Shown here one piece after another: positions 12,933-53,001 of a stretch of 64,000 bases of DNA; within the stretch, counting starts at the first letter, position 1, and each line of letters starts with the position of its first letter. A model generated the notes under the pieces. The model saw only the letters and a list, made by a program, of their open reading frames with translations. It did no database searches and had not been told where the DNA came from. The stretch comes from Escherichia coli. Lineage in GTDB: Bacteria > Pseudomonadota > Gammaproteobacteria > Enterobacterales > Enterobacteriaceae. The translations under genes and the position numbers were made by a program. Location of the stretch: the NCBI RefSeq assembly GCF_003991155.1, contig NZ_CP031293.1, one strand, 5' to 3'.

Positions 12933-13012
12933 TTTTTATATATTCCCTGTGGCAAATATTGCTAAACAATGCCCGGGGATTAATTTTTATTACTCACGGA
13001 AAGATTTAAATA

Positions 13013-15819: not shown

Positions 15820-15837
15820 CAATTAAGGCTGCAATCA

Positions 15838-18524: not shown

Positions 18525-18527
18525 CAA

Positions 18528-19898
18528 ATGGCTCGTTCTTTTAAAGTCTTATCGCCAACGGCAATCCTCGGGTATGGATTCCCGGAAGAGAGCTTCCGCA
18601 AAGCGATGGCAGAATCGCCCGATCTGATCGCCGTTGATGCAGGCTCTTCCGATCCTGGCCCCCACTACCTCGGAGCGGGCAAACCGTTTACCGATCGCGC
18701 AGGGGTCAAGCGCGATCTGCGCTATATGATCACCGCAGGCGTGCAAAATAATATACCGGTGGTGATCGGAACAGCTGGCGGTTCTGGTGCCGCACCACAC
18801 CTGGAGTGGTGCCGAGAAATAATTCATGAGATTGCCCGGGAAGAGCGACTCGTGTTCTCGATGGCGCTGATCCCGGCAGACGTTGACAAAGCCATCGTCC
18901 ACCAGGCGCTGGATAACGGCAAAATCACGGCGCTGGATTTTGTCCCGCCGTTAACCCACGACGCGATTGACGAAAGTACGTATATCGTTGCGCAAATGGG
19001 CATCGAACCCTTCCAGCGGGCGCTGAAAGAAGGCGCGCAAGTGGTGCTGGGCGGGCGCGCTTACGACCCGGCCTGCTTTGCTGCGCTCCCGATCATGCAA
19101 GGCTTTGATGAAGGTCTGGCGCTGCATTGTGGGAAAATCCTTGAATGCGCGGCAATCGCCGCAACGCCCGGCTCAGGCTCTGACTGTGCGATGGGCATCA
19201 TTGATGACAACGGCTTTACGCTGAAGACATTTAATCCGAAGCGTAAATTTACCGAAACGTCAGCGGCTGCACACACACTGTATGAGAAATCCGATCCCTA
19301 CTTCCTGCCTGGACCTGGCGGCGTGTTGAACCTGAAAGGCTGCACATTTAAAGCGGTCAATGACGGCGAAGTGTACGTCAGCGGTTCTAAGCATGAAGAA
19401 ACGCCGTATGCCCTGAAACTGGAAGGTGCGCGACGGGTGGGCTTCCGCTGTCTGACCATCGCAGGAACGCGCGACCCGATCATGATCGCCGGGATCGATA
19501 AAATCATCGATGAAGTCAAAACCAGCGTTTCACGTAACCTGTCGCTCGACGATGACAGCATTCGCATCAATTTCCACCTGTACGGCAAAAACGGGGTGAT
19601 GGGCGACCATGAACCGATGCAAACTGCCGGGCATGAGCTGGGGATTGTCCTTGATGTAGTTGCACCGACCCAGGAAATTGCCAATAGCGTTTGCTCGCTG
19701 GTGCGCTCTACCATGCTGCACTACGGCTATGAAAACCGCATCGCTACCGCAGGCAATCTGGCGTTCCCGTTCTCCCCTTCTGATATCCAGGGCGGGCCGG
19801 TATACGAATTTTCCATATATCACCTGATTGAAGCCAACGACGCTCTGCGTTTTGATTTCCATATTGAACAGGTGACGCCAGAAGGAGTTCAGGCATGA
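18528..19898 (+). CDS. Conserved hypothetical protein, 456 aa; family not confidently assigned (size and pairing reminiscent of AtuA-like DUF1446 proteins)
   Basis: ORF starting 3 nt after the mal stop with an AAGGA SD; no cofactor motif recognised by eye. The DUF1446 suggestion is from memory of domain architecture, not from alignment. Confidence 0.7.
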   Translation: MARSFKVLSPTAILGYGFPEESFRKAMAESPDLIAVDAGSSDPGPHYLGAGKPFTDRAGVKRDLRYMITAGVQNNIPVVIGTAGGSGAAPHLEWCREIIHEIAREERLVFSMALIPADVDKAIVHQALDNGKITALDFVPPLTHDAIDESTYIVAQMGIEPFQRALKEGAQVVLGGRAYDPACFAALPIMQGFDEGLALHCGKILECAAIAATPGSGSDCAMGIIDDNGFTLKTFNPKRKFTETSAAAHTLYEKSDPYFLPGPGGVLNLKGCTFKAVNDGEVYVSGSKHEETPYALKLEGARRVGFRCLTIAGTRDPIMIAGIDKIIDEVKTSVSRNLSLDDDSIRINFHLYGKNGVMGDHEPMQTAGHELGIVLDVVAPTQEIANSVCSLVRSTMLHYGYENRIATAGNLAFPFSPSDIQGGPVYEFSIYHLIEANDALRFDFHIEQVTPEGVQA

Positions 19899-20212
19899 AA
19901 CAGTCAATTGTCTCACTGGCGCAAGTCATTCGTTCGAAAAATGCCGGACCTTACGAACTGGTTTTAGATATTTTATTTAAAACGAAAGAAAACTATGAGC
20001 GAGTTAAATCATCAGGGCAATTAACCCCAGAACTGATTGCGCGCTTATATCATGTTGAACCTGACTTTATTCACCGTATTGTCTGGTTTGATCCTTCTAA
20101 CGCAGTAAAAATCGTCATGCCACGAGATATTATCTCCGGGAATGTAGGTGACAATGATGTCTATGGTGCACAGCAACATGCACCTTTATTAAATATGAGT
20201 TTCGATTTGTAA
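19895..20212 (+). CDS. Conserved hypothetical small protein, 105 aa (possible DUF4387-like partner of the preceding gene)
   Basis: ORF whose ATG overlaps the stop of the 456-aa gene (ATGA), implying translational coupling; no motifs recognised by eye. Confidence 0.6.
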   Translation: MKQSIVSLAQVIRSKNAGPYELVLDILFKTKENYERVKSSGQLTPELIARLYHVEPDFIHRIVWFDPSNAVKIVMPRDIISGNVGDNDVYGAQQHAPLLNMSFDL

Positions 20213-20295
20213 AAATCCGAATACTTTTAGCCAACTGACATCCCGTCACTTATTGCAGTTCAACACTTCAGCTATTTGTAAGGTTGTAATAGCAG

Positions 20296-20327
20296 GTAGA
20301 TGCCTGAATCTCTATTCAGGCATCTAC
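20296..20327 (+). other. Perfect 14-bp inverted repeat (gtagatgcctgaat-ctct-attcaggcatctac) in the 160-nt gap before the transporter gene; intra-operon terminator/attenuator or operator candidate
   Basis: Seen directly; followed by a T-rich tract (ttctcctgattctgattt). Confidence 0.4.
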
Positions 20328-20372
20328 TTCTCCTGATTCTGATTTATCGCCGTGCACCTGATGGAGGAAAAA

Positions 20373-21653
20373 ATGAAGAAAATAAGTTTAACCACGATGA
20401 TTCTTTTGGCGCTGGTACTTGGAATGATTATCGGCGTAGTGCTCAATAACACTGCTTCACCGGAAACCGCAAAACTCTATGCGCAAGAAATATCGATATT
20501 CACGACGATTTTCTTACGACTGATAAAAATGATTATCGCTCCGTTAGTGGTCTCTACCCTGGTGGTAGGTATAGCTAAAATGGGAGATGCCAAAGCCCTT
20601 GGTCGTATTTTTTCTAAAACACTCTTTTTATTTATTTGCGCCTCATTGCTGTCAATTGCCTTAGGCTTGATAACGGTAAATTTCTTCATGCCAGGCACAG
20701 GAATTAATTTTGTTGCACACGGTGCCGAAACCACCGGAGTGGTCGCGTCAGAACCCTTTACACTAAAAGTATTTATTTCGCATGCTTTCCCCACCAGCAT
20801 TGTCGATGCCATGGCACACAATGAAATTTTGCAAATCGTGGTGTTCTCAATTTTCCTCGGCTGTAGCCTGACGGCGATTGGTGAGAAAGGCAGCGCCATC
20901 GTTCACGCCTTAGATTCGCTGGCACATGCCATGTTAAAGCTCACTGGCTACGTCATGCTCTTCGCTCCCCTGACCGTATTCGCCGCTATTTCAGCATTGA
21001 TTGCTGAACGAGGACTGGCAGTTATGGTGAGCGCCGGGATCTTTATGGGTGAATTTTATTTCACCATGTTGTTACTTTGGGTGCTGCTTATCGGTCTGGC
21101 CATCGTTTATGTCGGCCCCTGCATCAGACGCCTGACCCGTGCCCTTTCGGAACCCGCCCTGCTGGCATTTACCACATCCAGTTCTGAAGCGGCTTTTCCG
21201 GGAACGCTTGAAAAACTGGAGCAATTTGGCGTTTCCCCCAAAATTGCCAGCTTTGTCTTACCCATTGGCTACTCATTTAATCTCGTTGGATCAATGGCCT
21301 ACTGCTCCTTCGCCACAGTTTTCATCGCCCAGGCCTGCAATATCCATTTATCCATCGGTGAGCAAATCACCATGCTGTTGATCCTGATGTTGACCTCGAA
21401 AGGAATGGCTGGCGTACCACGCGCCTCAATGGTGGTTATCGCCGCCACGCTCAACCAGTTCAATATTCCGGAAGCGGGGCTGATCTTGCTGATGGGCGTT
21501 GATCCGTTCCTTGATATGGGGCGTTCCGCGACAAACGTCATGAGCAACGCAATGGGCGCTGCGATGGTGAGTCGGTGGGAAGGCGAACATTTCGGCGAGG
21601 GCTGTCGGGGTAAAGCATTAAAACCCAATGAATCGAACGTTGCTCTGCCCTGA
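20373..21653 (+). CDS. Dicarboxylate/amino acid:cation symporter (DAACS family, GltP/GltT-like); putative glutamate or C4/C5-dicarboxylate uptake
   Basis: ORF-track frame begins 20352; start set to MKKISLTT with a GGAGG SD. Multi-TM protein with the family-typical layout; family call by overall resemblance to GltP/DctA-type carriers. Confidence 0.8.
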   Translation: MKKISLTTMILLALVLGMIIGVVLNNTASPETAKLYAQEISIFTTIFLRLIKMIIAPLVVSTLVVGIAKMGDAKALGRIFSKTLFLFICASLLSIALGLITVNFFMPGTGINFVAHGAETTGVVASEPFTLKVFISHAFPTSIVDAMAHNEILQIVVFSIFLGCSLTAIGEKGSAIVHALDSLAHAMLKLTGYVMLFAPLTVFAAISALIAERGLAVMVSAGIFMGEFYFTMLLLWVLLIGLAIVYVGPCIRRLTRALSEPALLAFTTSSSEAAFPGTLEKLEQFGVSPKIASFVLPIGYSFNLVGSMAYCSFATVFIAQACNIHLSIGEQITMLLILMLTSKGMAGVPRASMVVIAATLNQFNIPEAGLILLMGVDPFLDMGRSATNVMSNAMGAAMVSRWEGEHFGEGCRGKALKPNESNVALP

Positions 21654-21760
21654 GGGGGATCTTAAGCAATCAGAAGCCAATGACTACGCATTTTTATAAG
21701 CCGGATCATGAAGTTAGACGGCAATTAAGTAAAACTAACGTTTAAGGTGAAAAGTGAAAT

Positions 21761-23413
21761 ATGTCCAAACCATTTATCTGGCAAGAACCGTTTCTACAAA
21801 ATAAAGACGGTACAGAATATACATTAATTAGCGATCAACATATTACAGTAACGGAATTAGACGGCGAAGAAGTGATAAAAATCGCTCCTGAAGCATTAAC
21901 GCTGCTTGCCCGGCAGGCATTTTATGAAGCCTCTTTTTTCTTACGTTCCGCTCATTTGCAACAGGTCGCCAGCATTCTTAACGATCCGCACGCCAGTAGT
22001 AATGATAAATACGTTGCGTTGCAGTTATTACGTAATGCTGAAGTCTCAGCAAAAGGGGTATTACCCAACTGTCAGGATACCGGCACCGCAACTATTGTTG
22101 CCAGTAAAGGGCAACAGATATGGACCGGAGGTAACGACGCTGAAGCCTTAAGCAAAGGCATTTACACCACTTTTCAGGAAAATAATCTGCGCTTTTCACA
22201 AAATGCGCCACTGGATATGTATACCGAAGTCAATACGCAAACCAATCTACCGGCGCAGATTGATATCAGCGCCGTCGCTGGTGATGAGTACCATTTTCTC
22301 TGTATTAATAAAGGGGGCGGCTCTGCCAATAAAGCCGCGCTTTATCAGGAAACCAAATCCCTATTGCAACCAGAAAAACTGACCGCATTTTTAATCGAAA
22401 AAATGAAATCGCTGGGCACCGCTGCCTGCCCGCCTTACCACATCGCCTTTGTCGTCGGAGGGCTTTCAGCCGATCAAACCTTAAAAGTTGCCAAGCTGGC
22501 CTCAACGAAATATTACGACAATTTGCCCACCAGCGGAAACGAGCAAGGACAAGCATTCCGTGATATTGAGCTGGAAAAAGTATTGCTCGAGGCCAGTCAG
22601 CAATTTGGTATTGGTGCGCAATTTGGGGGTAAATATTTCGCTCATGATATTCGCGTCATTCGTCTGCCGCGTCACGGTGGCTCTTGCCCGATAGCTATGG
22701 CGCTCTCCTGTTCTGCGGATCGCAATATCAAAGCAAAAATTAACAAGCACGGTATCTGGCTGGAAAAACTCGAACACAATCCGGGGCAATATATTCCAGC
22801 CTCACTGCGGGAAGAAAATCACGCGCAACATGTACAGCTGGATCTAAACCGTCCGTTGCGTGACGTGATGCAGGATCTCGCCAGATTACCGGTAGGCACC
22901 CGCGTGTCGTTAAGTGGTCCCATCGTAGTGGCGCGCGATATCGCCCACGCCAAAATAAAAGCGCGGCTGGATAGCGGCGAACCGATGCCGGATTACCTGA
23001 AGCATCATATTGTCTATTACGCTGGCCCGGCGAAAACACCGGAGAACATGGCCTGCGGTTCACTGGGTCCAACCACGGGCGGTCGAATGGACGGTTATGT
23101 CGATACCTTCCAGGCGGCTGGCGGCAGTCTGGTGATGTTATCGAAAGGTAACCGCAGCCAGCAGGTCACCGATGCCTGTCACAAACATGGCGGCTTCAAT
23201 CTGGGGAGTATTGGCGGTGCAGCTGCGTTACTGGCGCAAGAATATGTCAAAAGTCTGCGTTGCCTGGAATACCCGGAGCTGGGTATGGAAGCGGTGTGGA
23301 TGATGGAAGTGGAAAATTTACCCGCATTCATCCTGGTAGATGATAAAGGCAATAATTTCTTTAGTCAGTTTGAGCAGCAACACCGCTGCGCCAGTTGCCC
23401 TGCGGGACATTAA
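21761..23413 (+). CDS. fumD: Class I (Fe-S) fumarate hydratase paralogue; probable mesaconase/fumarase FumD of the methylaspartate pathway
   Basis: 550-aa ORF with FumA/FumB-like length and sequence, located in the glm-mal operon. A class I fumarase paralogue encoded with glutamate mutase/methylaspartase in E. coli O157:H7 was reported to act as mesaconase; orthology here is inferred from context. Confidence 0.8.
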
Positions 23414-23422
23414 GGAAAATGA

Positions 23423-24025
23423 ATGGAAGCGCGAATTTCAACTGAACGGCATGTGCAGCGCCAGCAGAAATTGAAGGAACAGGTCGATACGCGCGTCGCG
23501 GCGGCGATAGAGAAAAAAGGGATTTTGATTGTTTTCACCGGCAACGGCAAAGGGAAATCCACTGCCGCGTTTGGTACTGTGACGCGCGCGGTGGGTCATG
23601 GCAAAACGGTGGGGGTTGCGCAGTACATCAAGGGGCAATGGGACAACGGCGAATACAACCTTCTCCAACCGCTGGGGGTTGAGTTTCATATTATGGGAAC
23701 CGGTTTTACCTGGGAGACACAGAACCGGCAAGCGGATATCGACGCGGCGAAAGAGGTCTGGTCGGAAAGCAAACGGATGCTGGCTGACAAGCGTTACGAC
23801 TTAGTGGTGCTTGATGAGCTGACCTATATGCTGGCTTACCATTATCTGGACACCGAAGAAGTGATCGCTTCTCTGCAAAACCGCCCGGCACAACAAAGTG
23901 TCATTGTCACCGGACGCGGTTGCCACAGTCAGATATTAAAAATGGCGGATACGGTCAGCGAAATCCGCCCCGTCAAACATGCTTTTGATAACGGCATTCA
24001 GGCGCAGCCGGGTATCGACTGGTAA
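23423..24025 (+). CDS. Corrinoid adenosyltransferase (CobA/BtuR family, cob(I)alamin adenosyltransferase)
   Basis: 200-aa ORF with P-loop GNGKGKSTAAFG and BtuR/CobA-like length; plausible supplier of adenosylcobalamin for glutamate mutase. Confidence 0.8.
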   Translation: MEARISTERHVQRQQKLKEQVDTRVAAAIEKKGILIVFTGNGKGKSTAAFGTVTRAVGHGKTVGVAQYIKGQWDNGEYNLLQPLGVEFHIMGTGFTWETQNRQADIDAAKEVWSESKRMLADKRYDLVVLDELTYMLAYHYLDTEEVIASLQNRPAQQSVIVTGRGCHSQILKMADTVSEIRPVKHAFDNGIQAQPGIDW

Positions 24026-24028
24026 TAA

Positions 24029-24056
24029 CTGCGCCTGGCATCCCGCCAGGCGCAGG
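24029..24056. terminator. Convergent terminator hairpin (ctgcgcctgg-N8-ccaggcgcag) between the cobA-like and LysR genes
   Basis: 10-bp perfect inverted repeat followed by gtttta on the plus strand; seen directly. Confidence 0.55.
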
Positions 24057-24058
24057 TT

Positions 24059-24964
24059 TTACATCTCCTGCGGTACGACCGATTTCGCCAGCAACCATTC
24101 ACGAAATTGCTGCAAGTGCGGTGAGTCAGACTTCTCTTCCTGCCACGTCATAATAAAACGATTACCGGTACGAATAGGCACATCACAGGGAATCACCATA
24201 TCGCCACTATCCAAATCATGTTGAATAGCGAACCGTGGTAACAGCGCCACGCCGAGATTAGAGCGCACGGCGGCAATCAGCATTGAAAGCAAATCGAAAC
24301 GTGGTCCGTTATTGACCAGCGGACTGCTAACGCCAGATAAAGCAAACCACTCTTCCCAGCCAGTAATACGGGTGCTTTGATGCAGAAGTGGTAACTCAGT
24401 AAGCAGTTCTGCCACTGACAGTTTTTGATCGGACATTGCAAGCAAACTGCCGCTGCATACCGGCAAAATCTCCTCATCAAAGAGATATTCTACTTCCGCC
24501 CAGGGCGCGCAAAAATTTTCGCGCATAATGACAGCATCGTACTCCCGATTAAGAAAATCGCCGTTATTAGCTAAAGAATGAATATTAACAATAATATCGG
24601 GATGTAACTTTGTGAATTCATGTAAATTTGGGATTAACCAGTGGGTACTAAAAGTAGGATTAACGGCAAGTTCAATAACCTGAACCGTAGGCTGCCAGGT
24701 CATAATGGTATTGGTATCGCGTTCCAGCTTATTTAATGTTTCTTTTACTATCCCCAGGTAATACTTCCCTGCATCATTAAGAAAAATGCGTTTTTTAGAG
24801 TGTGAAAATAACGGAGTACGTAAAAATTCCTCCAGCGCACTTACTTGTCTGAATACTGCACTTTGGGTTAACGCTAACTCCTCTGCCGCTCTGGTATAAC
24901 TTTCATGACGTGCGACGACCTCAAAAGTCACCAGCAGTTCCGTTTTAGGTATTTTTCCTCGCAT
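24059..24964 (-). CDS. LysR-family transcriptional regulator
   Basis: 301-aa ORF with N-terminal wHTH (...TFEVVARHESYTRAAEELALTQSAVFRQVSALEE...) and LysR substrate-binding-domain length; AGGGAAGG SD. Confidence 0.85.
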   Translation of the reverse strand: MRGKIPKTELLVTFEVVARHESYTRAAEELALTQSAVFRQVSALEEFLRTPLFSHSKKRIFLNDAGKYYLGIVKETLNKLERDTNTIMTWQPTVQVIELAVNPTFSTHWLIPNLHEFTKLHPDIIVNIHSLANNGDFLNREYDAVIMRENFCAPWAEVEYLFDEEILPVCSGSLLAMSDQKLSVAELLTELPLLHQSTRITGWEEWFALSGVSSPLVNNGPRFDLLSMLIAAVRSNLGVALLPRFAIQHDLDSGDMVIPCDVPIRTGNRFIMTWQEEKSDSPHLQQFREWLLAKSVVPQEM

Positions 24965-25234
24965 AATGCCTTCCCTTAAAAATAGTTGAAACTATCAAAA
25001 AACCATTACTTATTGCTAAGTAATGGCAACCAAAGCAGCAATCAATATTTTATAAAAATCATGTTCGATATTTATAACCTGGTAAGCCTGGCGTGACAAT
25101 TGTCTCAATCAGACAATAATAATCCGAAAAGCAAAACGCCCTTCGGATTATTATGATTCAAGTTAAGTGAAGATTATTAAATTGATAGCAATTATCATAT
25201 CTATGGATATTATGACAAACAATCAACAAAAATT

Positions 25235-26905
25235 TTATTTTTGATTTATAGCATATCCTTCTAAGAATTTTTGCGAAGCTGCAATATCTGGGGTAAAGAC
25301 CCGATCCTGGTCGACAAACGGCACGACTTTTCTGTATTCGGTAAACATTGCTTTGGTGGATTTCCCTAATGCCAGTTGTGGATCGGCCTGCAACCGTAAA
25401 TCGAGAGCCTGTGCGGAATGCATCAGTTCAATGCCATAAATCACGTTCAGATTATCGACAACCTGTTTCAATCTTCTGGCCGCGTGGTCATTATTGGCAC
25501 CGGTATCTTCTATACCTCCGGCAACCGGTTGAATATCGAAAGAAACCGGGTTAGCGAGATCGACATTTTCCGCATGCAGCGCAACAAACGGGATATGTAA
25601 TGAACCGAAGCCATGACCTTTATTACCTGCTGCCGACAGGAAGCGTGACAAACCGGTAAAGTGATCATCTTCAAGATGCAGCGAGCGGCGCATACTGTTA
25701 TGTGAAACATGCACTAACGCCACGGTCAGACGCTGGGTGGCAAGCGCAACCGGTAACGATTCGAAATTCGCCGTCGGGAAGATCCCACCGCTGATTGCCC
25801 CATCTTTAACAAAATATTGCGCGACCTGACTGGAGTCCTGATACGCTTTGTCTGCATTCAGCACGGTTGCCGGGTTGTCATCGGAACTGTTGATCTGCAC
25901 GGTAATGGTATCTTCAGCATCGCGCAACGCGCGCATTGCCTCAGAAATGGTATACACCGTCGTTCTGAACGATAACGGATCCTGCAATGCACGTTTGTCA
26001 TGCTTATGCCATAAATAAGAACCACTTAACGCATCGCGAATCTCTTTAGCGGAATCAGCCAACTGCGGGAAAGGACGCACGGCGATCGACTGCGGCAGTA
26101 CCGGCGCGACATTGCCATTCAACGCTTCCAGACTCATAGCGAAAACCACCGGGCTGACATTCAGCAACTGACGTGCCGAACGAACAGCTTCGATAGCGTA
26201 GGCTGTCCCGACGCTGTTGTTCGATAAAATCGCCAGCATATCTTTACCCTGCGGTACCAGTGGCTTAAGTCCCACTTTCGCCAGCGCGTCACCACCGCTC
26301 ATTTGCACGCCATTTACTCGGGCTTTCCATTCCCCCATCATCACCAGACCAACGTGCGAAGCGAGCATAATATCCGCTGCGCCGATACTTCCCCGCACCG
26401 GAATTAACGGTGTAACGCCGCGATTAATAAATTCGGCATACAACTCGGCAATATAAGGCTGTGCGCCGGTTTGCCCATGCAGCATGGTATTTAAACGTAA
26501 TACCATTGAAAGGCGTGCCAGATAATCCGGTAACATCGGACCAACGCCCGCAGAATGGGCGCGCAGCGCGGCAGCATTAAATTTTTTCGACGCGTCAATC
26601 ACCTCAGGCGTTAAATTTCCTTTGGCATCAAATATGGGCTGATCTTTATTTAGCCCCACGCCCACGGTTAAGCCATAAACAGGCGTACCTGAATGCGCGG
26701 CAGTCATCACCAGATCATAACTTTTTTCCATGCGCTCCATGGCGTTCGACGCGATTTTGACGCCGTTATCACCTAATGCAATTGACCAGGCCTGGTCAAT
26801 GGAAAGATGTTCGCCATCCAGCGTAATGGTTGATTTCGCCATCGCAATGGAGCAAACGCTCCAGAGCACAACGGTGACAGTGACTCTTCGTATCAATCCT
26901 TTCAT
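25235..26905 (-). CDS. Histidine ammonia-lyase (HAL/PAL) family protein with N-terminal signal peptide and apparently degenerate MIO motif
   Basis: 556-aa ORF. N-terminus MKGLIRRVTVTVVLWSVCSIAMA-KS looks like a Sec signal peptide; the rest aligns by eye with HutH (YGLTVGVG, ...PVRGSIGAADIMLASH...), but the canonical GASGDL (Ala-Ser-Gly MIO precursor) reads GAADIM. Confidence 0.7.
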   Translation of the reverse strand: MKGLIRRVTVTVVLWSVCSIAMAKSTITLDGEHLSIDQAWSIALGDNGVKIASNAMERMEKSYDLVMTAAHSGTPVYGLTVGVGLNKDQPIFDAKGNLTPEVIDASKKFNAAALRAHSAGVGPMLPDYLARLSMVLRLNTMLHGQTGAQPYIAELYAEFINRGVTPLIPVRGSIGAADIMLASHVGLVMMGEWKARVNGVQMSGGDALAKVGLKPLVPQGKDMLAILSNNSVGTAYAIEAVRSARQLLNVSPVVFAMSLEALNGNVAPVLPQSIAVRPFPQLADSAKEIRDALSGSYLWHKHDKRALQDPLSFRTTVYTISEAMRALRDAEDTITVQINSSDDNPATVLNADKAYQDSSQVAQYFVKDGAISGGIFPTANFESLPVALATQRLTVALVHVSHNSMRRSLHLEDDHFTGLSRFLSAAGNKGHGFGSLHIPFVALHAENVDLANPVSFDIQPVAGGIEDTGANNDHAARRLKQVVDNLNVIYGIELMHSAQALDLRLQADPQLALGKSTKAMFTEYRKVVPFVDQDRVFTPDIAASQKFLEGYAINQK

Positions 26906-26955
26906 TGTGTTTCCTTATCATGATGAGTTTAACAACGGGTTACTGCGACAACGTT

Positions 26956-27906
26956 TTAATTTGTTCTATCTGTTTTCCCCCGCCGGACAATACTGGTCAC
27001 CAGGCGAGCGGCAACTTTCGCAGTTAAATTATCGCGGTCCAGGTCCGGGTTAAGTTCGGCAATATCCGCAGCAATCAACTTCTCGCTACCGGCGATTAAA
27101 TTCACAATGGCTTCAGTAATATTTAACGGCACGCCTAACGGTGATGGAGCAGAAACACCGGGCGCCTGATAACCTGGTAAAACATCGAGACAAATCGTTA
27201 AATAAATGGCGTCACAAGCCTGAATATCTGCCGAGAGCGCATTAGCGATCTCATGCAAACCACGTTCAAATTGCAGAGATTCGTCCAGCCAATAACGCAC
27301 ACCGAGACAATCAGCGCGATCAAATAACGCCTGAGTATTGGCAAAACGACTTATTCCCAGCACGCGATAATGAAACGGTTTGCCATGCTGCGCGTTCCAC
27401 TCTTGCATCTGACGAAACGGCGTACCTGAATTGGCTTGTTCCGCCATCCGTAAATCAAAATGCGCGTCAAGGTTCACAATCAGTAACCGCTGAATATCCG
27501 GACGCGACTGCATAATCCCCTGAAATGTTCCCCACGCCACTTCATGACCGCCCCCCAGAACCACCGGTAAACTGCCGCGCGCAATGGCTGTAGATACGTT
27601 AGCCGCCAGACGATTTTGTGCGGATTCCAGCGCGTGGTCCTCGCTTTGTACATCGCCCATATCGAAAATAGCGCCTTCACAGAGCACTGGCATATTTCCC
27701 AACATGCTGCGCAACGCGCCCGGTCCGCCTGCTGCACCCGCTCGCCCATCATTACGTTGCACTCCGTCATCAACGGCAAAACCAATCAGCGTACAACCGC
27801 CGTGGCTTTGTTCACTAAACGGTTGCACATGCTGATGCCAGCGAGTGCTGATGCCGGTTTCCTGCGAGTCAACACGCCCACTCCACGGCAAAAATGTTTG
27901 CTTCAT
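26956..27906 (-). CDS. hutG: Formimidoylglutamase (arginase-family HutG)
   Basis: ORF-track frame extends to 27945; start set to MKQTFLPW, whose ATG overlaps the hutI stop by 1 nt. Arginase-fold motifs (GGGHEVAWG, NLDAHFDLR, DVLPGYQAPGVSAPSPLG) resemble Salmonella/Klebsiella HutG. Confidence 0.85.
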   Translation of the reverse strand: MKQTFLPWSGRVDSQETGISTRWHQHVQPFSEQSHGGCTLIGFAVDDGVQRNDGRAGAAGGPGALRSMLGNMPVLCEGAIFDMGDVQSEDHALESAQNRLAANVSTAIARGSLPVVLGGGHEVAWGTFQGIMQSRPDIQRLLIVNLDAHFDLRMAEQANSGTPFRQMQEWNAQHGKPFHYRVLGISRFANTQALFDRADCLGVRYWLDESLQFERGLHEIANALSADIQACDAIYLTICLDVLPGYQAPGVSAPSPLGVPLNITEAIVNLIAGSEKLIAADIAELNPDLDRDNLTAKVAARLVTSIVRRGKTDRTN

Positions 27907-29117
27907 TACCAACTCCTTTTTCCGCCGACAATAAGCCCCTGGCAAGGCTGATGCCCAAACCAGTAAGCCAGTTCACGTGGATGATTAAGATCCCAGACCG
28001 CCATATCCGCCCGTAATCCCGGTGCAAGTTCACCCCGGTCAATAAGTCCAAGTGCCTTTGCCGCATTACGCGTAACGCCCTGAACGGCTTCCAGCGGCGT
28101 CATGCGAAACAGCGTACAGGCCATATTGATCATCAATGGCAATGACATATTGGGAGACGTTCCGGGATTATGGTCCGTGGAGATAGCAATCGGCACACCT
28201 GCGGCCCGCAGAGCGACAATCGGCGGCAGATGGGTTTCGCGCAGGAAGTAATAAGCACCGGGAAGCAAAACCGCCACTGTTCCAGCCGCTTTCATGGCGG
28301 CGATCCCCGACTCGCTCAGGTACTCCAGATGATCGCAGGAGAGTGCAGAAAACGCCGCTGCCAGCGCCGCGCCTTGCTGGTCAGAAAGCTGTTCGGCATG
28401 CAGTTTTACAGGTAATCCATAGCTTTGCGCTTTACTGAAAACGCGCCGTACCTGCTCTGGAGTAAAGGCGATGTTTTCACAAAAAGCATCAACTGCATCA
28501 ATCAGCCCCTGTTCATGCAACACGCACATCCAGTCGCAAAGCGCCGTAATGTAATCATCACTGCGCCCGGCAAACTCTGGCGGCAGGCTGTGCGCCCCGA
28601 GAAACGTAGACTGAATATGTAACCCGGTAGATTGCTGCAAGCGGCGGATCACGCGTAAACAACGTGCTTCATCTTCCAGCGTTAAGCCATAACCCGATTT
28701 GATTTCAAGCGTACTGACGCCTTCACGTTGCCAGTTTCGCAGTCGCTGCGCCGCCAGTTCAAACAACTGTGTTTCGCTGGCTGCCCGCGTGGCATTAACC
28801 GTAGATAAGATCCCGCCGCCCGCTCTGGCGATATCTTCATAAGCCACGCCTTGCAACCGCATCTCAAACTCGTTCGCCCTCTGGCCGCCATACACCAGAT
28901 GTGTATGACAATCCACCAGACCGGGTGTCAGCAACTTACCCTGTAGATCGTGTTCCTCTGTAATATCAGCCGTCAGTTCACGGGGGATCTGCGTGGCCTT
29001 CCCAAGCCAGACAATCGAGTCACCACGGCTGATTAATGCCCCCTTTTCAATCACTCCCCAATCGTTAGCGGAAAGCGTCGCCAGCGTGGTATTTCGCCAG
29101 AGCGTTAATGCACTCAT
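27906..29117 (-). CDS. hutI: Imidazolonepropionase
   Basis: ORF-track frame extends to 29150; start set to MSALTLWRN (ATGA overlap with the hutD stop). Amidohydrolase motif DCHTHLVYGG and overall collinearity with HutI. Confidence 0.85.
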   Translation of the reverse strand: MSALTLWRNTTLATLSANDWGVIEKGALISRGDSIVWLGKATQIPRELTADITEEHDLQGKLLTPGLVDCHTHLVYGGQRANEFEMRLQGVAYEDIARAGGGILSTVNATRAASETQLFELAAQRLRNWQREGVSTLEIKSGYGLTLEDEARCLRVIRRLQQSTGLHIQSTFLGAHSLPPEFAGRSDDYITALCDWMCVLHEQGLIDAVDAFCENIAFTPEQVRRVFSKAQSYGLPVKLHAEQLSDQQGAALAAAFSALSCDHLEYLSESGIAAMKAAGTVAVLLPGAYYFLRETHLPPIVALRAAGVPIAISTDHNPGTSPNMSLPLMINMACTLFRMTPLEAVQGVTRNAAKALGLIDRGELAPGLRADMAVWDLNHPRELAYWFGHQPCQGLIVGGKRSW

Positions 29118-29704
29118 AAGGATTTTTCCCCTCGTAGATAATAAAGCCACCAGCCCGCCAGCTCACCGACGGAGACTTTCTTCCGTGGTACGAAACGCCA
29201 GGGCCTGCCATCAGGTGCAACCAGCCATAACAACATATTTGCCGCGACAAACACCCTTTTCTTGCCGCTTATCCACTCCCCTTCACACAGCGTGAACAGG
29301 CCCGCTTGCGCAAGTGACGGAGGACGCCAGTCAACGGCACTTTGCACCCGCAACATCCCCGCATCGCCTTCCCGCGCCATAACATTCAGATCGCGAACCC
29401 CGCCGCCCAGCAGCTGGCAATCAGGCATAGCTTCTCCAGGGAAAATTAAGGCGGGATCGTGACGTTGCAGGTTGATGATCGAATCGGCAAACGTTAGCTT
29501 CACCCCTTCCCCGTCGAGAATCGCGAGGCCACGAACCACGCCAGGCCACGCTGAAAAAGAGCCATCCTGACTGACATTCGCCATACTGATGCGCAACAAC
29601 CAGTTTTCATCATCGGGCCAGGCAAGCAGCTGTCGGGTAAACCCCCCGCCGTTGCGCCACGGTTGCAGCGGCTTATCCATTGCAGAAATCAGCATCGGTT
29701 CCAT
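29114..29704 (-). CDS. hutD: HutD/Ves-family protein
   Basis: 196-aa ORF with the PWRNGGG motif I associate with HutD/Ves; located within the hut cluster. Confidence 0.7.
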   Translation of the reverse strand: MEPMLISAMDKPLQPWRNGGGFTRQLLAWPDDENWLLRISMANVSQDGSFSAWPGVVRGLAILDGEGVKLTFADSIINLQRHDPALIFPGEAMPDCQLLGGGVRDLNVMAREGDAGMLRVQSAVDWRPPSLAQAGLFTLCEGEWISGKKRVFVAANMLLWLVAPDGRPWRFVPRKKVSVGELAGWWLYYLRGEKSL

Positions 29705-29705
29705 A

Positions 29706-31115
29706 TTAAGACTCGGGATAAATCGTATAAGCAGGAACGCAGGTGGTGCGTTTGGCCCACGGGTAATAGATAACGGCGGTAATTAACAAGCCGACAATCC
29801 AGGAGATATCCGCCCCATCCATCAGGACAGAAATGGGTCCCTGATACAGTTTTTGATTCAGGAAGGGGATCTGCACCAACACGCCTACGCCATAGCACGT
29901 CAAAGCGGTTTTGTTATACGCGCCATAACGCCCTTCCGGGGTATAAAGTGCCGGAATATCGGTTTTACCTTGTGAGATGAAGTAGTAGTCGATGAGATTA
30001 ATGGCGCTCCACGGCACAAATACCGTCAACAGCAGCAGAACGAAGTTTTTGAAATTATTCAAAAAATCTGCGCTTGCCGCCAGCGCGACGACCATCGACA
30101 ACAGCACGAACCCTACAACGTAGGCAGCACGAACACGCTGTGAAACCTGACTGCGATTATTAAAGGCGCTGACGGTCGCCAGAATCGACATAAAGCCACC
30201 GTAGGCATTCAAACAGTTCACCGTCAGTTTGCCGCAAACAATCACCGTATAAATCAGAATGGCGAAGGTGGGTCCGGCTAACTCACCCATAAAACCAACC
30301 TGATCCTTCAGGAAGTTAGCACCACAGGCCGCAACAAGCACGCCAAACGTCATGGCACATTGCGCGCCAAGCGTGGTTCCCAGAAAGGTGGCAAAGAAGA
30401 TTGATTTTGCTGGCGTATCAGAGGGTAAATAGCGGGAATAATCAGAGGCGTAAGGGGCAAACGTTAATTGCCATCCGGCAGAGAGAGCAATCGTTAATAA
30501 AAAGACCGACAGACTAAATGGCTTTTGACCAAATGCCGCAGCCACATCGTAGTGACCGCTAAGTTGAGTGGCCAGGTAAATAAACCCCAGAATACTTAAT
30601 ATCCCTGCAACACGGCCAACGACGTGAATAAGTTTATAACCGACCAATGCGATCATCGCGGTCAGCATGCCGAAAATAATAATTCCGGTCGATGCCGATT
30701 CGAAACCAAATATCCGGTTAATCGCCTGACCGGATAATACTGTACCCGTCGCGGCAAATCCAAGGTACATAATAATCACCATCAGTAACGGTAGCGCCGC
30801 TCCTTTAACGCCAAAGCGGATACGACTGGAGATCATCTGGGGTAATCCCAGCTTTGCCCCCTGCGACGAGTGCAATGCCATTACTGCACCACCAATAATA
30901 TTACCGATTAATAAACCAATTATTGCTGACATGGCTTCGGAGCCAAAAATAATCGCTAACGCGCCGTCCACCACAGCGGTAATTTGTAAGTTAGCACTTA
31001 GCCATAAAGTAAACTGACTGGATGGCGAGCCGTGGCGAGCAGACTCAGGAACGGCGTTAATCGTATTTGATTCTAATACTGGCTTTTTACTGCGGATAGG
31101 GCTGCTTGATTCCAT
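29706..31115 (-). CDS. NCS1-family permease (cytosine/purine/uracil/thiamine/allantoin permease family); putative urocanate/histidine-related transporter
   Basis: ORF-track frame extends to 31160; start set to MESSSPIRSK (AGGAGA SD 7 nt upstream). Multi-TM protein with NCS1/CodB-like layout; substrate inferred only from the hut context. Confidence 0.75.
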   Translation of the reverse strand: MESSSPIRSKKPVLESNTINAVPESARHGSPSSQFTLWLSANLQITAVVDGALAIIFGSEAMSAIIGLLIGNIIGGAVMALHSSQGAKLGLPQMISSRIRFGVKGAALPLLMVIIMYLGFAATGTVLSGQAINRIFGFESASTGIIIFGMLTAMIALVGYKLIHVVGRVAGILSILGFIYLATQLSGHYDVAAAFGQKPFSLSVFLLTIALSAGWQLTFAPYASDYSRYLPSDTPAKSIFFATFLGTTLGAQCAMTFGVLVAACGANFLKDQVGFMGELAGPTFAILIYTVIVCGKLTVNCLNAYGGFMSILATVSAFNNRSQVSQRVRAAYVVGFVLLSMVVALAASADFLNNFKNFVLLLLTVFVPWSAINLIDYYFISQGKTDIPALYTPEGRYGAYNKTALTCYGVGVLVQIPFLNQKLYQGPISVLMDGADISWIVGLLITAVIYYPWAKRTTCVPAYTIYPES

Positions 31116-31278
31116 GAAAAAGTCTCCTGCAAAATGAGAGGTCATTTTTTGAAACAGCAATAGAGGGTCGGGAGATATTTCTCTCGACGATGTAAAAATA
31201 TTTTTTGATAATTATTGTTATACAGGCGAATTATTCTCCGCCTGTATTAGCGCAAATATTAAATGACGGCGTTAATAT

Positions 31279-32976
31279 TTAGCGAATCATCGGTAATTTC
31301 AGACCATAGTTTTTGGCACATTCAATTGCCGCTTCATAACCCGCATCCGCATGACGCATAACCCCGGACGCACAGTCATTCACCAGCACACGCGCCAGAC
31401 GTTTTTCGGCTTCTTCGCTACCATCGGCAACAATAACCATCCCGGCGTGTTGTGAATACCCCATCCCGACGCCGCCGCCATGATGCAGGGATACCCACGT
31501 TGCTCCCCCTGCAGTGTTGAGCAAACCGTTGAGCAACGGCCAGTCAGAAACCGCATCACTGCCATCAAGCATGCTTTCGGTTTCGCGGTTCGGGCTGGCG
31601 ACAGAACCGGTATCAAGATGATCGCGCCCAATCACAATCGGTGCTTTTAGTTCACCGTTGCGCACCATTTCGTTGAATGCCAGCCCCGCCAGGTGACGCT
31701 CACCAAGCCCCAGCCAGCAAATACGTGAAGGAAGTCCCTGGAAGGCAATGCGCTCGCGCGCCATATCCAGCCAGCGATGCGTCAGTACGTTATTGGGGAA
31801 CAACTCTTTAATTTTGGCATCAGTTTTATAGATATCTTCCGGGTCGCCAGACAGCGCCACCCAACGGAATGGACCTTTGCCTTCACAAAACATTGGACGA
31901 ATATAAGCCGGAACAAAGCCCGGGAAATCAAAGGCATTTTGCAGACCTTCGTTGAAGGCCACCTGGCGGATGTTGTTGCCATAATCGACAACCGGGATCC
32001 CCATCGCCTGGAAGTCCAGCATCCCCTGAACATGTGCGACGCAGCTCTGTGCCGCTTCTTTTTGCAATCTGGCGTGTTGCTGTGGATCCTGCTGTGCAGC
32101 GCGCCATTGTTCTACGCTCCAGCCCATCGGTAGGTAGCCATAAACCAGATCGTGAGCGGAAGTCTGGTCGGTCACCAGATCCGGCTTGATCGCCCCCTGA
32201 CGTGCACGTTTCACCAGTTCAGGAACAATTTCCGCCGCATTGCCCAACAGCGCGATTGAAACAGCGTCTTTGCGCTCAGTATGGTATTTAATCAGCGCCA
32301 GTGCATCATCGAGATCTTTCGCTTGTTTATCGACATAACGGGTACGCAGACGGAAGTCGATGCTACTTTGCTGGCACTCGATATTTAATGAACACGCCCC
32401 CGCCAGAGTCGCCGCCAGCGGTTGTGCACCGCCCATACCACCTAGCCCTGCGGTCAGGATCCATTTTCCACTCAGCGAATTGTTGTAGTGCTGACGACCC
32501 GCTTCAACAAAGGTTTCGAACGTTCCCTGCACAATGCCCTGACTACCGATGTAGATCCACGAGCCAGCGGTCATCTGGCCGTACATGAACAGACCTTTAC
32601 GATCCAGTTCATTGAAATGATCCCAGTTGGCCCATTGCGGTACCAGGTTAGAGTTGGCAATCAATACGCGCGGCGCATCGGTATGCGTTTTAAACACGCC
32701 TACGGGTTTACCGGACTGAACCAGCAGTGACTCATCAGCTTCCAGATTTTTCAGTGATTCAAGGATTTTGTCAAAACACTCCCAGTTACGTGCCGCACGA
32801 CCAATACCACCATACACCACCAGATGCTGTGGATTTTCGGCAACGTCGGGATCAAGGTTGTTCTGCAACATCCGATAGGCAGCTTCGATCTGCCAGTTTT
32901 TGCAGTGCAGCTGCGTACCGTGTGGCGCATGGATTACACGGCTGGTATCAATACGCGGGTCTGAAGGCTTACTCAT
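31279..32976 (-). CDS. hutU: Urocanate hydratase (urocanase)
   Basis: ORF-track frame extends to 33075; start set to [11 protein letters not shown] (AGGAG SD). Near-collinear with canonical HutU (...[17 protein letters not shown]..., ...[15 protein letters not shown]..., ...[11 protein letters not shown]...). Confidence 0.9.
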
Positions 32977-33733
32977 GAATCTTCTCCTGTTACTTGATAA
33001 AATTAAACGCTGTAATCGGTCAGAAAAAACGAACGAATGAATATAGAAACGGTTTCTATAATTCCCGTTTATCATTTTGTATTATTAATTCATTTAGTGA
33101 ATATTGTTTGTCGTGGTATATTCACTATGAATATAAATTCAAAACCACCAACGCGTTGTATGCGAATTCAATATGCTTAATTTAACTTGTCGAAAAAGTG
33201 ATATTGTTGGCAAAATATTTTCTAATTTGAACATATGAATATGATGAGATTGCAAGATGTCAGTAATTTAATTATATGAGAAATGCGTTAATAACGACCA
33301 GATATTAGCGTAACAACAGGTGTTCCGACACCACACAGTGCGCATAACACAATGATATTTAAAATAAGATCTTCATTATTCGTCATAAAGACATGTTTTA
33401 TTATCATTAATAATCCATTTGTTTTCATCCCACTTTTGATAATTAAAAAACGGCAACAATGGATAGTTACCCGACGTAAAAACAGGCGTAAAAATAAATC
33501 TTAAAATATATCCACTGGAAATTATCATTTTTCATATTTTACAATCTGGCGTCGATAACTGACCCCTTTTATAACACCCCCGTTTGTTAATAGTCTTTTT
33601 TATCTTGTATTGATCGTCATTGCTGCATACACTACGCGCGTTTTCTTTCCCTTTTGCTGGCTGCTGACCGGAAAGACAAAATTACCCTCGCAATAAAGGG
33701 GGTTGTTTAACGTCTATATTTCAGGACAGCGTT

Positions 33734-35131: not shown

Positions 35132-35229
35132 AAAAAGGCCATCATATGATGGCCAACCATGTCGAAACCGACAGCCCTTCGCCATTCCTGTAGAGGGAAG
35201 CGGCGAGGGCTATTTCTTATTACAGATAT
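35132..35229 (-). ncRNA. sdhX: sucD 3'UTR, expected position of the SdhX (RybD) small RNA, ending in an intrinsic terminator
   Basis: About 98 nt between the sucD stop and a GGCCATCATATGATGGCC hairpin (35137..35154) followed on the minus strand by a U-run. SdhX is known to be processed from the sucD 3'UTR; its sequence was not verified here. Confidence 0.5.
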
Positions 35230-48631: not shown

Positions 48632-48690
48632 AAACACCTCTGCTCTTAACGGTCGGTGCCGAAACACCGACCAGTCCTTATGCCATGAAG

Positions 48691-49659: not shown

Positions 49660-49686
49660 TATTATTACCTGTAAGAGCTTTATCGA

Positions 49687-51194: not shown

Positions 51195-51208
51195 AATTCC
51201 TCCGTACA

Positions 51209-51964: not shown

Positions 51965-51975
51965 GGTGTCGCTCC

Positions 51976-52989: not shown

Positions 52990-53001
52990 TCATTGCTCTC
53001 C

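Follow-up and report, generated by a model that had tools for sequence, protein, structure and literature searches.

The gene that closes the minus-strand hut operon in the window, the 64 kb stretch of Escherichia coli DNA analyzed here, encodes a HAL-fold lyase homologue that lacks the MIO triad. We consider it probable that this lyase is a periplasmic histidine-betaine (hercynine) trimethylamine-lyase, whose urocanate would enter the cell through an NCS1-family permease and be degraded to glutamate. We favor hercynine and urocanate as its substrate and product because of the family to which the protein belongs, its retained active site, the loss of the MIO triad, the replacement of a lysine by Ile438, and the hut genes that surround it. 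The features concerned are collected in Table 1.

Table 1. Features of the lyase gene, the hut operon, and the adjacent regulator gene in the window
Feature	Position	Strand	Remarks
LysR regulator gene, GcvA-like	24059..24964	minus	Separate transcription unit, behind terminator-like hairpins
Likely operon terminator	25106..25163	minus	Hairpin plus T-rich stretch directly downstream of the lyase stop codon
Lyase CDS	25235..26905	minus	MIO-less trimethylammonia-lyase homologue with the HAL fold, 556 aa; RefSeq WP_001361287.1
Specificity motif GSLHIPF	25586..25606	minus	Lyase residues 434-440
MIO-site counterpart GSIGAAD	26372..26392	minus	Lyase residues 172-178; position of the Ala-Ser-Gly of HAL
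Predicted Sec/SPase I signal peptide MKGLIRRVTVTVVLWSVCSIAMA	26837..26905	minus	Lyase codons 1-23; cleavage before Lys24
Shine-Dalgarno site AAGGA	26912..26916	minus	6 nt before the lyase ATG at 26905
hutG, formimidoylglutamase	26956..27906	minus	TIGR01227, 292 bits (cut-off 229); RefSeq annotation
hutI, imidazolonepropionase	27906..29117	minus	TIGR01224, 451 bits (cut-off 298)
hutD, HutD/Ves family	29114..29695	minus	
NCS1-family permease	29706..31115	minus	Annotated 'cytosine permease'; predicted urocanate importer
hutU, genuine urocanate hydratase	31279..32976	minus	TIGR01228, 934 bits (cut-off 375)

The open reading frame of 556 codons lies on the minus strand, and the plus-strand translation of the same interval is full of stops. 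RefSeq calls its product a 'HAL/PAL/TAL family ammonia-lyase', with 'hutH' as the name in some records. The aromatic amino acid lyase profile of Pfam (PF00221) covers the protein end to end (residues 34-526, E 2.8e-123). The best PDB sequence match is the Treponema ergothionase 6s7j (E 5.5e-85, compared with 6.7e-50 for the best HAL). The same structure is the top Foldseek match (TM 0.91) of the AlphaFold2 model (pLDDT 89), which gives TM values of 0.89-0.92, normalized by target length, against HAL and ergothionase structures.

The initial annotation had read the Ser and Gly of the MIO site as lost, and alignment with Pseudomonas putida HAL bears this out. Both HMMER and MAFFT place GSVGASGDLAPLAH against GSIGAA-DIMLASH in the lyase, so that GSVGASGD has become GSIGAA-D, with Ser143 now Ala and Gly144 deleted. 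The one-residue deletion is common to all MIO-less relatives, including the ergothionase Td_ETL (SIGEGD), and the length of the loop equals that of Td_ETL and of all 120 close homologues. Because the Ala-Ser-Gly triad is absent, we predict that the lyase cannot form MIO. We assign the protein to the MIO-independent trimethylammonia-lyases (ergothionase and histidine-betaine lyase), a class described in 2019 and 2025-26 whose substrates carry a trimethylammonium leaving group and need no MIO. The suggestion that the protein might use different chemistry thus proved well founded.

These data speak against a working histidine ammonia-lyase (HutH) at the head of an ordinary histidine-utilization operon, a possibility that we regard as extremely remote even though the lyase fills the place of hutH in the operon, shares the fold and the substrate-binding residues of HAL, and is annotated 'hutH' in several genomes. 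Without the triad, there is no MIO; the hutH equivalog model TIGR01225 scores 281 bits, below its cut-off of 539; the characterized MIO-less members of the family require the trimethylammonium group and have no histidine ammonia-lyase activity; and HutH is a cytoplasmic protein, unlike the lyase with its predicted signal peptide. Compared with P. putida HAL (1b8f/1gkm), the lyase has the same fold, substrate-binding residues, predicted product (urocanate), and entry position in the hut pathway, but it is only ∼31% identical, is predicted to be secreted, and would free the trimethylamine of a betaine in place of the ammonia of histidine.

The residues expected to handle the substrate are all in place. 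Tyr77, His117, Gln308, Arg314, Asn339, and Glu466 are kept in the lyase and are invariant in an alignment of 53 diverse homologues. In this family, the Tyr is the catalytic base, Gln, Arg, and Asn are carboxylate ligands, and His and Glu are imidazole ligands; equivalent residues have been listed for the histidine-betaine lyase Swoo_3913 (10.1101/2025.08.13.670108) and for ergothionase. Comparison of two E. coli alleles gives a dN/dS of 0.048, a sign of strong purifying selection on the gene. The initial annotation had mainly suggested a periplasmic HAL-fold protein that serves as a binding protein or sensor and has no catalytic function, and these results do not support it. The loss of the cofactor, the predicted export, and the lack of any other periplasmic binding protein encoded in the operon would suit such a role. 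However, the catalytic Tyr and every ligand residue are invariant in the 53 homologues, purifying selection is strong, three homologues that have signal peptides proved to be efficient enzymes when made without the leader, and a secondary transporter of the NCS1 family works without a binding protein. We think there is scarcely any chance that the protein is non-catalytic.

A characterized counterpart is Swoo_3913 (HBTL) of Shewanella woodyi, which likewise combines a HAL fold without Ala-Ser-Gly with an N-terminal leader and has its active-site residues at nearly the same numbers (Tyr77, His117, Gln308, Arg314, Asn339, and Glu466/467) (Bertsova et al., bioRxiv 10.1101/2025.08.13.670108). Enzymes of the Swoo_3913 type are defined by specific activity on hercynine and activation by Mg2+, and Swoo_3913 showed no histidine ammonia-lyase activity (10.1101/2025.08.13.670108). 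The comparisons of the lyase with Swoo_3913, SO_3057, and SO_3299 rest on published residue numbers. Both Swoo_3913 and the lyase have a neutral residue in place of Lys384 of ergothionase, and the same reaction is predicted for both, namely hercynine to urocanate and trimethylamine.

Lys384 binds the sulfur of ergothioneine as a thiolate and is reported to be essential for that substrate. In the lyase, its place is taken by Ile438, preceded by His437 where ergothionase has Gln, so that GSLHIPF aligns with GTIQKTF of Td_ETL. The motif reads G-A-x-Q-K in all 102 Lys-type homologues, compared with G-S-L-H-(I/V) in the clade of the lyase, and the clade-defining changes relative to these 102 sequences cluster at the Lys site (S412E, A435S, Q437H, and K438I/V). 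Swoo_3913, which acts on hercynine, has Asn (Asn439) at the position where the lyase has Ile preceded by His (10.1101/2025.08.13.670108), and SO_3299 has Gln there. Loss of the Lys alone does not predict hercynine as the substrate, because SO_3299, which also lacks it, rejected both hercynine and ergothioneine and took only an N-pi-methylated betaine. We infer hercynine as the substrate of the lyase from this one class of residue together with the gene context, on which the call rests.

SO_3299 brings up the possibility that the lyase acts on another imidazole betaine, such as an N-methylated hercynine or a partly methylated or oxidized derivative, with hercynine at best a side substrate. As SO_3299 shows, members without the Lys may have unexpected substrates; furthermore, the combination of His437 and Glu412 is found in no characterized enzyme, and the neighborhoods of the Enterococcus members and of one further clade member, P0008, are not hut operons. 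On the other hand, canonical HutU, HutI, and HutG should not accept a urocanate methylated on the ring; both residues that bind the imidazole nitrogens, His117 and Glu466, are kept; and the pairing of one clade member with a canonical histidase implies urocanate as the common product. We hold another betaine to be unlikely.

The family is large, with 1430 database clusters matching at E ≤ 1e-20. The closest relatives of the lyase are Lys-type enzymes (53-62% identity), and in a neighbor-joining tree, its clade nests inside the Lys-type, ergothionase-like clade. The Asn-type representative P0124, which is presumed to stand for Swoo_3913 from its residue numbering (that of Swoo_3913 plus 1) and lies on a contig too short to take in a reductase gene, is 42% identical to the lyase and falls on a separate branch. 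The lyase thus appears not to be an orthologue of Swoo_3913, and its clade seems to have lost the Lys independently of the S. woodyi enzyme. A second lineage of histidine-betaine lyases, marked by Glu412, Ser435, His437, and Ile/Val438 and present in Escherichia and Enterococcus, may have arisen independently from periplasmic ergothionases and replaced histidase at the top of the Hut pathway in E. coli; we give this scenario about an even chance.

A scan of contigs for related loci returned six, including ones from Serratia and E. whittamii. Lys-type lyases adjoin flavocytochrome c in E. albertii and in a Burkholderiaceae genome, and at the Serratia locus (L017), a Lys-type lyase adjoins a thiourocanate hydratase (1001 bits) and a thiohydantoin desulfurase. 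In the His-Ile/Val clade, the lyase of the window adjoins true hutU, hutI, and hutG, and one other member adjoins a canonical histidase that carries the Ala-Ser-Gly triad and shares an NMO-like reductase with it. These loci support the view that context tracks residue 438, Lys going with thiourocanate enzymes or flavocytochrome c and His-Ile/Val with urocanate enzymes. Two contexts in the clade count against the hercynine reading: P0008 lies in an unrelated neighborhood of the hydroxyproline type, and the Enterococcus members adjoin a CoA-transferase instead of hut genes.

The same evidence bears on whether the lyase could be a periplasmic ergothionase that converts ergothioneine into thiourocanate and trimethylamine, which could be the activity that Wolff reportedly found in E. 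coli in 1962. Its nearest relatives are of the Lys type, as is the ergothionase SO_3057, and its own clade is nested among them, its best PDB match is an ergothionase, and since a 2026 review knows no E. coli homologue, the accessory gene is at least a candidate. Ergothionases (Td_ETL, 6s7j, of T. denticola and the periplasmic SO_3057 of S. oneidensis) share with the lyase the shortened MIO-less loop, the Tyr base, and the carboxylate and imidazole ligands, and those like SO_3057 also carry signal peptides. The essential thiolate-binding Lys, however, is Ile438 in the lyase, with further changes at 412, 435, and 437, and the partner enzymes act on urocanate, not thiourocanate. The hydratase of the operon is a true HutU, which scores 670 bits against the thiourocanate hydratase model NF058530, below the cut-off of 930, and the operon contains no thiohydantoin desulfurase, unlike the Serratia cluster with its Lys-type lyase. 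We judge ergothionase activity to be improbable.

The Serratia cluster, which consists of a LysR gene, thiohydantoin desulfurase, thiourocanate hydratase, an MFS symporter, and a secreted lyase, is predicted to serve ergothioneine catabolism. It follows the same operon logic as the E. coli genes, joining a MIO-less lyase with a signal peptide to a secondary transporter, a cytoplasmic hydratase of the urocanase family, and downstream enzymes. It differs in having a lyase with the Lys, a hydratase that scores above the thiourocanate hydratase cut-off, and a transporter of the MFS, not of NCS1. The cluster serves as a sulfur-containing counterpart of the E. coli operon.

The genes from hutU to the lyase are all on the minus strand and are tightly packed or overlapping, and a second terminator-like site follows the first at 25002-25027. 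As the initial annotation had stated, canonical hutH and hutC are missing: the 64 kb window contains no second HAL-family gene and no gene of the HutC type (GntR plus UTRA). A search of positions 23000-35500 for riboswitches and known RNAs found none, apart from a spurious, sub-threshold mir-374 match on the terminator hairpin. Foreign base composition of the hut genes was considered and rejected, as their GC content is close to that of E. coli on average; AT-richness is confined to the intergenic region upstream of hutU. An intact operon is present in ∼2.6% of complete E. coli genomes, with 144 carrier genomes, and a deletion scar is left in many others. Strains 2016C-3878 and FUJ80154 are among those with the hut genes.

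The core formed by the NCS1 permease, hutU, hutI, and hutG does look like a module for urocanate utilization. Orthologues of the permease (63-67% identity) stand directly beside urocanase in the hut clusters of Comamonas and Nocardia, and in a relative whose hutD, hutI, and hutG have been lost, permease and lyase remain a pair. A urocanate-specific transporter, HutTu, is known in Pseudomonas, and we take it to be a member of the NCS1 family. The arrangement of a hut-linked permease beside urocanase is thus shared by E. coli with Pseudomonas, Comamonas, and Nocardia, but those clusters differ in being under HutC control, and that of Comamonas includes a canonical histidase with Ala-Ser-Gly. The cargo of the E. 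coli permease is probably urocanate. The cluster had been described as one for scavenging urocanate; the urocanate module is there, but mere uptake of free urocanate does not capture its likely role, as urocanate in the periplasm would most likely be made from histidine betaine.

The presence of an NCS1 permease and a LysR gene had also been noted correctly, but the link of the latter to the operon was overstated. The LysR gene is kept in ∼840 E. coli genomes without hut genes, stands beside a remnant of the lyase in O157:H7 and many other strains that have no hut genes, and is not orthologous to the LysR of the Serratia cluster. Because it persists in genomes without hut genes, its connection with the operon is uncertain; it may not regulate the hut genes, and a role as their dedicated regulator is unsupported.

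The signal peptide proposed for the lyase (MKGLIRRVTVTVVLWSVCSIAMA|KS) has the expected features, as read from its n, h, and c regions. The basic residues K2, R6, and R7 are followed by a hydrophobic core of 13 residues, and positions -3 to -1 are A-M-A. Codons 1-23 encode the same residues in the second E. coli allele, alignments with cytoplasmic homologues begin only at residue 25-27, and the AlphaFold2 model shows the signal stretch as a low-confidence detached helix. About 105 of the 120 closest homologues have an N-terminal extension that differs in sequence and is alike in its properties. An extension of this kind is kept in Gram-negative homologues only; those of the Gram-positive Enterococcus lack it and start directly at MKxIVLDG. 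We infer that the lyase is exported to the periplasm by the Sec pathway, on account of the Shine-Dalgarno site at the long start and of signal-peptide features that, among the homologues, only the Gram-negative ones share. Tat export was rejected, as the RR pair at residues 6-7 is not kept in the 85% identical homologue P0007 and the h-region is strongly hydrophobic. A lipoprotein signal at Cys18 was rejected as well, W-S-V-C not being a lipobox. HAL-family enzymes are tetramers, and it counts against export that the tetramer would have to assemble after passage through Sec.

The lyase could instead be translated from Met22 and stay in the cytoplasm, in which case the NCS1 permease would import the betaine itself. 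Some NCBI entries of 535 amino acids (E. coli and E. marmotae) do use this start, beginning with MAKSTIT, and typical ergothionases are cytoplasmic. Nevertheless, we find this very unlikely. A strong Shine-Dalgarno site is present only before the upstream ATG, with nothing comparable in the sequence examined upstream of Met22; the signal-like extension is kept open in the large majority of homologues counted above; and Comamonas and Nocardia, which have no such lyase nearby, also link this group of NCS1 orthologues to urocanase.

According to the hercynine reading, which we favor, the periplasmic lyase would act on hercynine (histidine betaine, N-alpha-trimethylhistidine) by 1,2-elimination, in which Tyr77 would take the beta-proton and trimethylammonium would leave without an electrophilic cofactor, yielding trans-urocanate and trimethylamine. 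The co-transcribed NCS1 permease would import the urocanate, and HutU, HutI, and HutG would turn it into glutamate and formamide. In this hut operon, a secreted betaine lyase would then have taken the place of the cytoplasmic histidase, so that hercynine, not histidine, would be usable by these E. coli. In S. woodyi, by comparison, Swoo_3913 works together with a urocanate reductase of the periplasm in anaerobic respiration, and urocanate is not imported (10.1101/2025.08.13.670108). The E. coli lyase is partnered instead by the NCS1 permease and by cytoplasmic HutU, HutI, and HutG, with HutU as the consumer of urocanate. In the literature searched, which took in few subscription journals, we found neither a link between hercynine and hut genes nor a coupling of such a lyase to Hut catabolism.

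E. coli RefSeq records name the lyase as histidine ammonia-lyase, hutH, or HAL/PAL/TAL ammonia-lyase; on the present evidence, it cannot be a histidase. The start codon chosen in some records removes the predicted signal peptide. Cleavage in the periplasm would mean that no betaine transporter is needed and that the amine never enters the cell, a design shared by the Serratia cluster. The correlation between residue and context, Lys with thiourocanate and His-Ile/Val with urocanate, offers a simple sorting rule for a large family. The 2026 review, in stating that E. coli has no ergothionase homologue, doubts Wolff's report; the lyase is such a homologue, located in the accessory genome, and if our reading is true, it would provide a genetic basis for the old and doubted reports of ergothionase-like activity.

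Hercynine is a fungal and dietary compound, ergothioneine is likewise dietary, and trimethylamine formed in the gut is the precursor of TMAO. If our reading is true, the lyase of E. coli and Enterococcus would add a source of trimethylamine that current gene catalogues, with cutC, cntA, and others, leave out, and some commensal and pathogenic E. coli, together with some enterococci, would be unrecognized producers of trimethylamine from a betaine of fungi and the diet.

The gene encoding the HAL-fold protein is an ORF of 556 codons that, as the initial annotation held, closes the hut operon. We located it on the minus strand as the final gene of a tightly packed unit, in which hutD/hutI and hutI/hutG overlap and the remaining intergenic gaps measure 10-163 nt. 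Two terminator-like hairpins lie 3' of its stop codon. The window is E. coli chromosome, with 100% identity to strain 2016C-3878 and many other strains, and the operon is sited in the variable sucD-cydA region. The proposed absence of hutH and hutC was confirmed, as no further HAL-family gene or HutC-type regulator was found in the 64-kb window.

Features of the hut operon and its surroundings in the window
Feature	Coordinates	Strand	Remark
IS1A element and two hypothetical genes	11211-13339		within a low-GC stretch (34-38%) flanked by cydA and the glutamate mutase cluster
Glutamate mutase cluster	13982-24025		adjoins the hut operon
GcvA-like LysR gene	24059-24964		separate unit after the lyase gene
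Lyase	25235-26905	minus
Lyase 5' end	26843-26905	minus	start annotated inconsistently
hutG	26956-27906	minus
hutI	27906-29117	minus
hutD	29114-29695	minus
NCS1-family permease	29706-31115	minus
hutU	31279-32976	minus
Intergenic region	32977-33733		757 bp; AT-rich, about 38% GC
RtcB-family gene	33734-35131		stand-alone, divergent from hutU
Accessory cluster	46860-54665		between gltA and abrB

The intergenic region upstream of hutU yielded no match to a known RNA family and no obvious regulator site, and neither rtcA nor rtcR lies near the RtcB-family gene. The accessory cluster comprises a FadR/GntR-type regulator (of FadR type, not HutC), an RraA-family protein, two dehydrogenases, a split UxaA-family dehydratase, and a TRAP transporter. 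On the other side of the LysR gene, the glutamate mutase genes (glmS, glmL, and glmE) are grouped with those for methylaspartate ammonia-lyase, AtuA, DUF4387, a symporter, class I fumarate hydratase, and cobO, constituting the methylaspartate route of glutamate fermentation. Because the end product of the Hut pathway is glutamate, this cluster and the hut operon could form a single catabolic line.

Pfam family PF00221 spans the entire lyase (E 2.8e-123). Alignment with HAL at the MIO site (GSVGASGD versus GSIGAA-D) bore out the suspected loss of the Ser and Gly of the triad, the former being replaced and the latter deleted. The closest solved relative is the Treponema denticola ergothionase (PDB entry 6s7j; E 5.5e-85, compared with 6.7e-50 for Pseudomonas putida HAL), which also ranks first in structural matches to the lyase model. 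With the curated hutH model the protein reaches 281 bits, short of the cut-off at 539; together with the ergothionase relationship, this led us to reject a histidase identity. Since trimethylamine leaves readily, ergothionase can release it from ergothioneine without MIO. Two recent preprints widened the family to leader-peptide enzymes, taken by their authors as periplasmic. The Shewanella woodyi enzyme Swoo_3913 acts specifically as a hercynine (histidine betaine) trimethylammonia-lyase, yielding urocanate, and does not deaminate histidine (bioRxiv 10.1101/2025.08.13.670108); SO_3057 of Shewanella oneidensis is an ergothionase, and the substrate of SO_3299 is N-pi-methyl histidine betaine.

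The residues listed in the preprints as catalytic or substrate-binding (Tyr77, His117, Gln308, Arg314, Asn339, and Glu466) are all present in the lyase, with numbering almost identical to that of Swoo_3913, and none of them varies across 53 aligned, diverse homologues. Purifying selection on the gene is strong, with a dN/dS of 0.048 when its two E. coli alleles are compared. Both observations disfavor the earlier idea of a non-catalytic binding protein or sensor, and we are highly confident that the lyase is an MIO-independent trimethylammonia-lyase.

The N-terminus (MKGLIRRVTVTVVLWSVCSIAMA, with KS following the predicted cleavage point) has, as read from the sequence, the tripartite layout of a Sec/SPase I signal, in agreement with the signal peptide originally proposed. 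Alignment to cytoplasmic relatives starts only at residue 25-27, and an AAGGA Shine-Dalgarno sequence with 6-nt spacing precedes the upstream ATG; none precedes Met22, where some 535-aa NCBI entries begin. Of the 120 nearest homologues, about 105 are likewise extended at the N-terminus, by segments that vary in sequence and resemble one another in character, whereas the Gram-positive Enterococcus homologues begin straight at MKxIVLDG. This is the pattern expected of a real signal peptide, and we predict that the extension functions as one. It is unchanged between the two E. coli alleles, and the AlphaFold2 model (pLDDT 89) places residues 1-20 in a helix of low confidence, detached from the rest. 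In certain entries from E. coli and E. marmotae (P0002 and P0006), the start is set at Met22, which removes the signal peptide; several RefSeq genomes label the gene "hutH, histidine ammonia-lyase."

Lys384 of ergothionase is the thiolate ligand, reported to be essential; its equivalent is Asn in Swoo_3913, Gln in SO_3299, and Ile438 in our lyase (GSLHIPF versus GTIQKTF). The Lys is retained, within a G-A-x-Q-K motif, by 102 of the 120 closest homologues; G-S-L-H-(I/V) is common to the lyase, its relatives in Escherichia, the Enterococcus proteins, and a single Pseudomonas-like sequence. Neighbor-joining recovered these His-Ile/Val sequences as one monophyletic group (79/100 bootstraps) nested within the Lys-type clade. 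The Asn-type representative (P0124), tied to Swoo_3913 by numbering (Swoo_3913 plus 1), is 42% identical to the lyase and falls on a long branch of its own, so that the loss of Lys in the His-Ile/Val group was independent of that in the S. woodyi enzyme. Few, clustered positions set the group apart from all 102 Lys-type sequences (S412E, A435S, Q437H, K438I/V, and L495M), changes through which a positive charge disappears and a negative one is gained near the would-be sulphur site.

Gene context bears independently on the substrate. Lys-type lyases in E. albertii and a Burkholderiaceae genome have an FAD flavoprotein and a multihaem cytochrome c encoded next to them, as in the respiratory clusters reported from Shewanella. 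In E. albertii (L007 8001-13318; see also L022 4934-8662), the Lys-type lyase, a second lyase within the genus Escherichia (53% identical to ours, predicted secreted), has a cytochrome b, multihaem cytochromes c, and an FAD flavoprotein as neighbors, matching Shewanella-type ergothioneine respiration clusters. In Serratia quinivorans (L017 4689-11581, also L014), a signal-peptide-bearing Lys-type lyase is grouped with LysR, thiohydantoin desulfurase, thiourocanate hydratase (1001 bits, cut-off 930), and an MFS symporter. This looks like an ergothioneine-catabolic operon with a putatively exported first enzyme; characterized catabolic ergothionases are described as cytoplasmic.

The E. coli operon hydratase is a true HutU (934 bits, with the thiourocanate model under its cut-off), partnered by HutI and HutG, and in an 85%-identical relative the NCS1 permease is the only partner of the lyase. 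In a metagenomic Firmicute (L023 51-4203), the lyase and a canonical Ala-Ser-Gly histidase flank an NMO-like reductase gene, implying the same product for both. The Enterococcus loci (L002/L003 5518-12554) encode a sigma-54 activator, CoA-transferase, MFS protein, lyase without signal peptide, and NMO/FMN-type oxidoreductase; these and L023 may represent an undescribed reductive urocanate route. Thus, residue class tracks downstream chemistry, Lys occurring with sulphur enzymes and its loss with urocanate enzymes. Chiefly from this match, we infer that hercynine would be the substrate of the E. coli lyase. The neighborhood of P0008, a clade member 68% identical (motifs GTTGDGD and GSLHVPF), does not fit the hercynine model: the Pseudomonas-like locus (L005 7255-17080) holds hydroxyproline-catabolism-type genes (DHDPS-like, aldehyde dehydrogenase, proline racemase-like, and D-amino-acid oxidase-like) and no hut genes. 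SO_3299 likewise cautions that Lys-less enzymes may favor other betaines.

The NCS1 protein, annotated "cytosine permease," belongs to a very conserved group whose members (63-67% identity) directly adjoin urocanase in HutC-controlled clusters, including a Nocardia cluster (HutC / NCS1-hutU-hutI-hutG) with no hutH nearby. We take HutTu to be an NCS1 protein and PA5099 to be hut-linked. HutTu is a urocanate-specific transporter of Pseudomonas hut clusters, and a systematic screen detected no nucleobase transport by the NCS1 protein PA5099. In the most economical model for the operon, the lyase would be exported and would cleave hercynine in the periplasm to trimethylamine and urocanate; the latter would enter via the NCS1 permease and be converted by HutU, HutI, and HutG to glutamate and formamide. 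The Serratia cluster has the same design for ergothioneine. We favor the full model (periplasmic lyase, hercynine substrate, and urocanate uptake) with moderate confidence.

Of 5426 complete E. coli genomes, 143-144 contain the whole operon, which exists as two alleles differing by about 5%. About 840 further complete genomes, including O157:H7, retain nothing of the operon but a ~194-bp piece of the lyase 3' end, flanked by sucD and the LysR gene (L009 5001-5194 in O157:H7 SS52; 86% identity). E. whittamii bears a different scar (L016 4349-4799), a hutU fragment joined to the last 104 lyase codons. The operon seems old in Escherichia, and the differing remnants point to repeated, independent loss. 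The permease and LysR gene initially assigned to the cluster are both present; a LysR role in hut control is doubtful because the gene outlasts operon deletions.

The enzyme class and its chemistry are already known from the ergothionase structure (2019), the hercynine lyase (2025 preprint), and further members (2026 preprint). According to a 2026 review, E. coli lacks any ergothionase homologue, and our literature search, with most subscription journals outside its coverage, found no paper connecting hercynine with a hut operon. What is new is a distinct Lys-less clade, of independent origin and with its own signature, that is present in E. coli and Enterococcus, and the predicted coupling of the lyase to assimilatory Hut catabolism via a permease, not to a periplasmic reductase.
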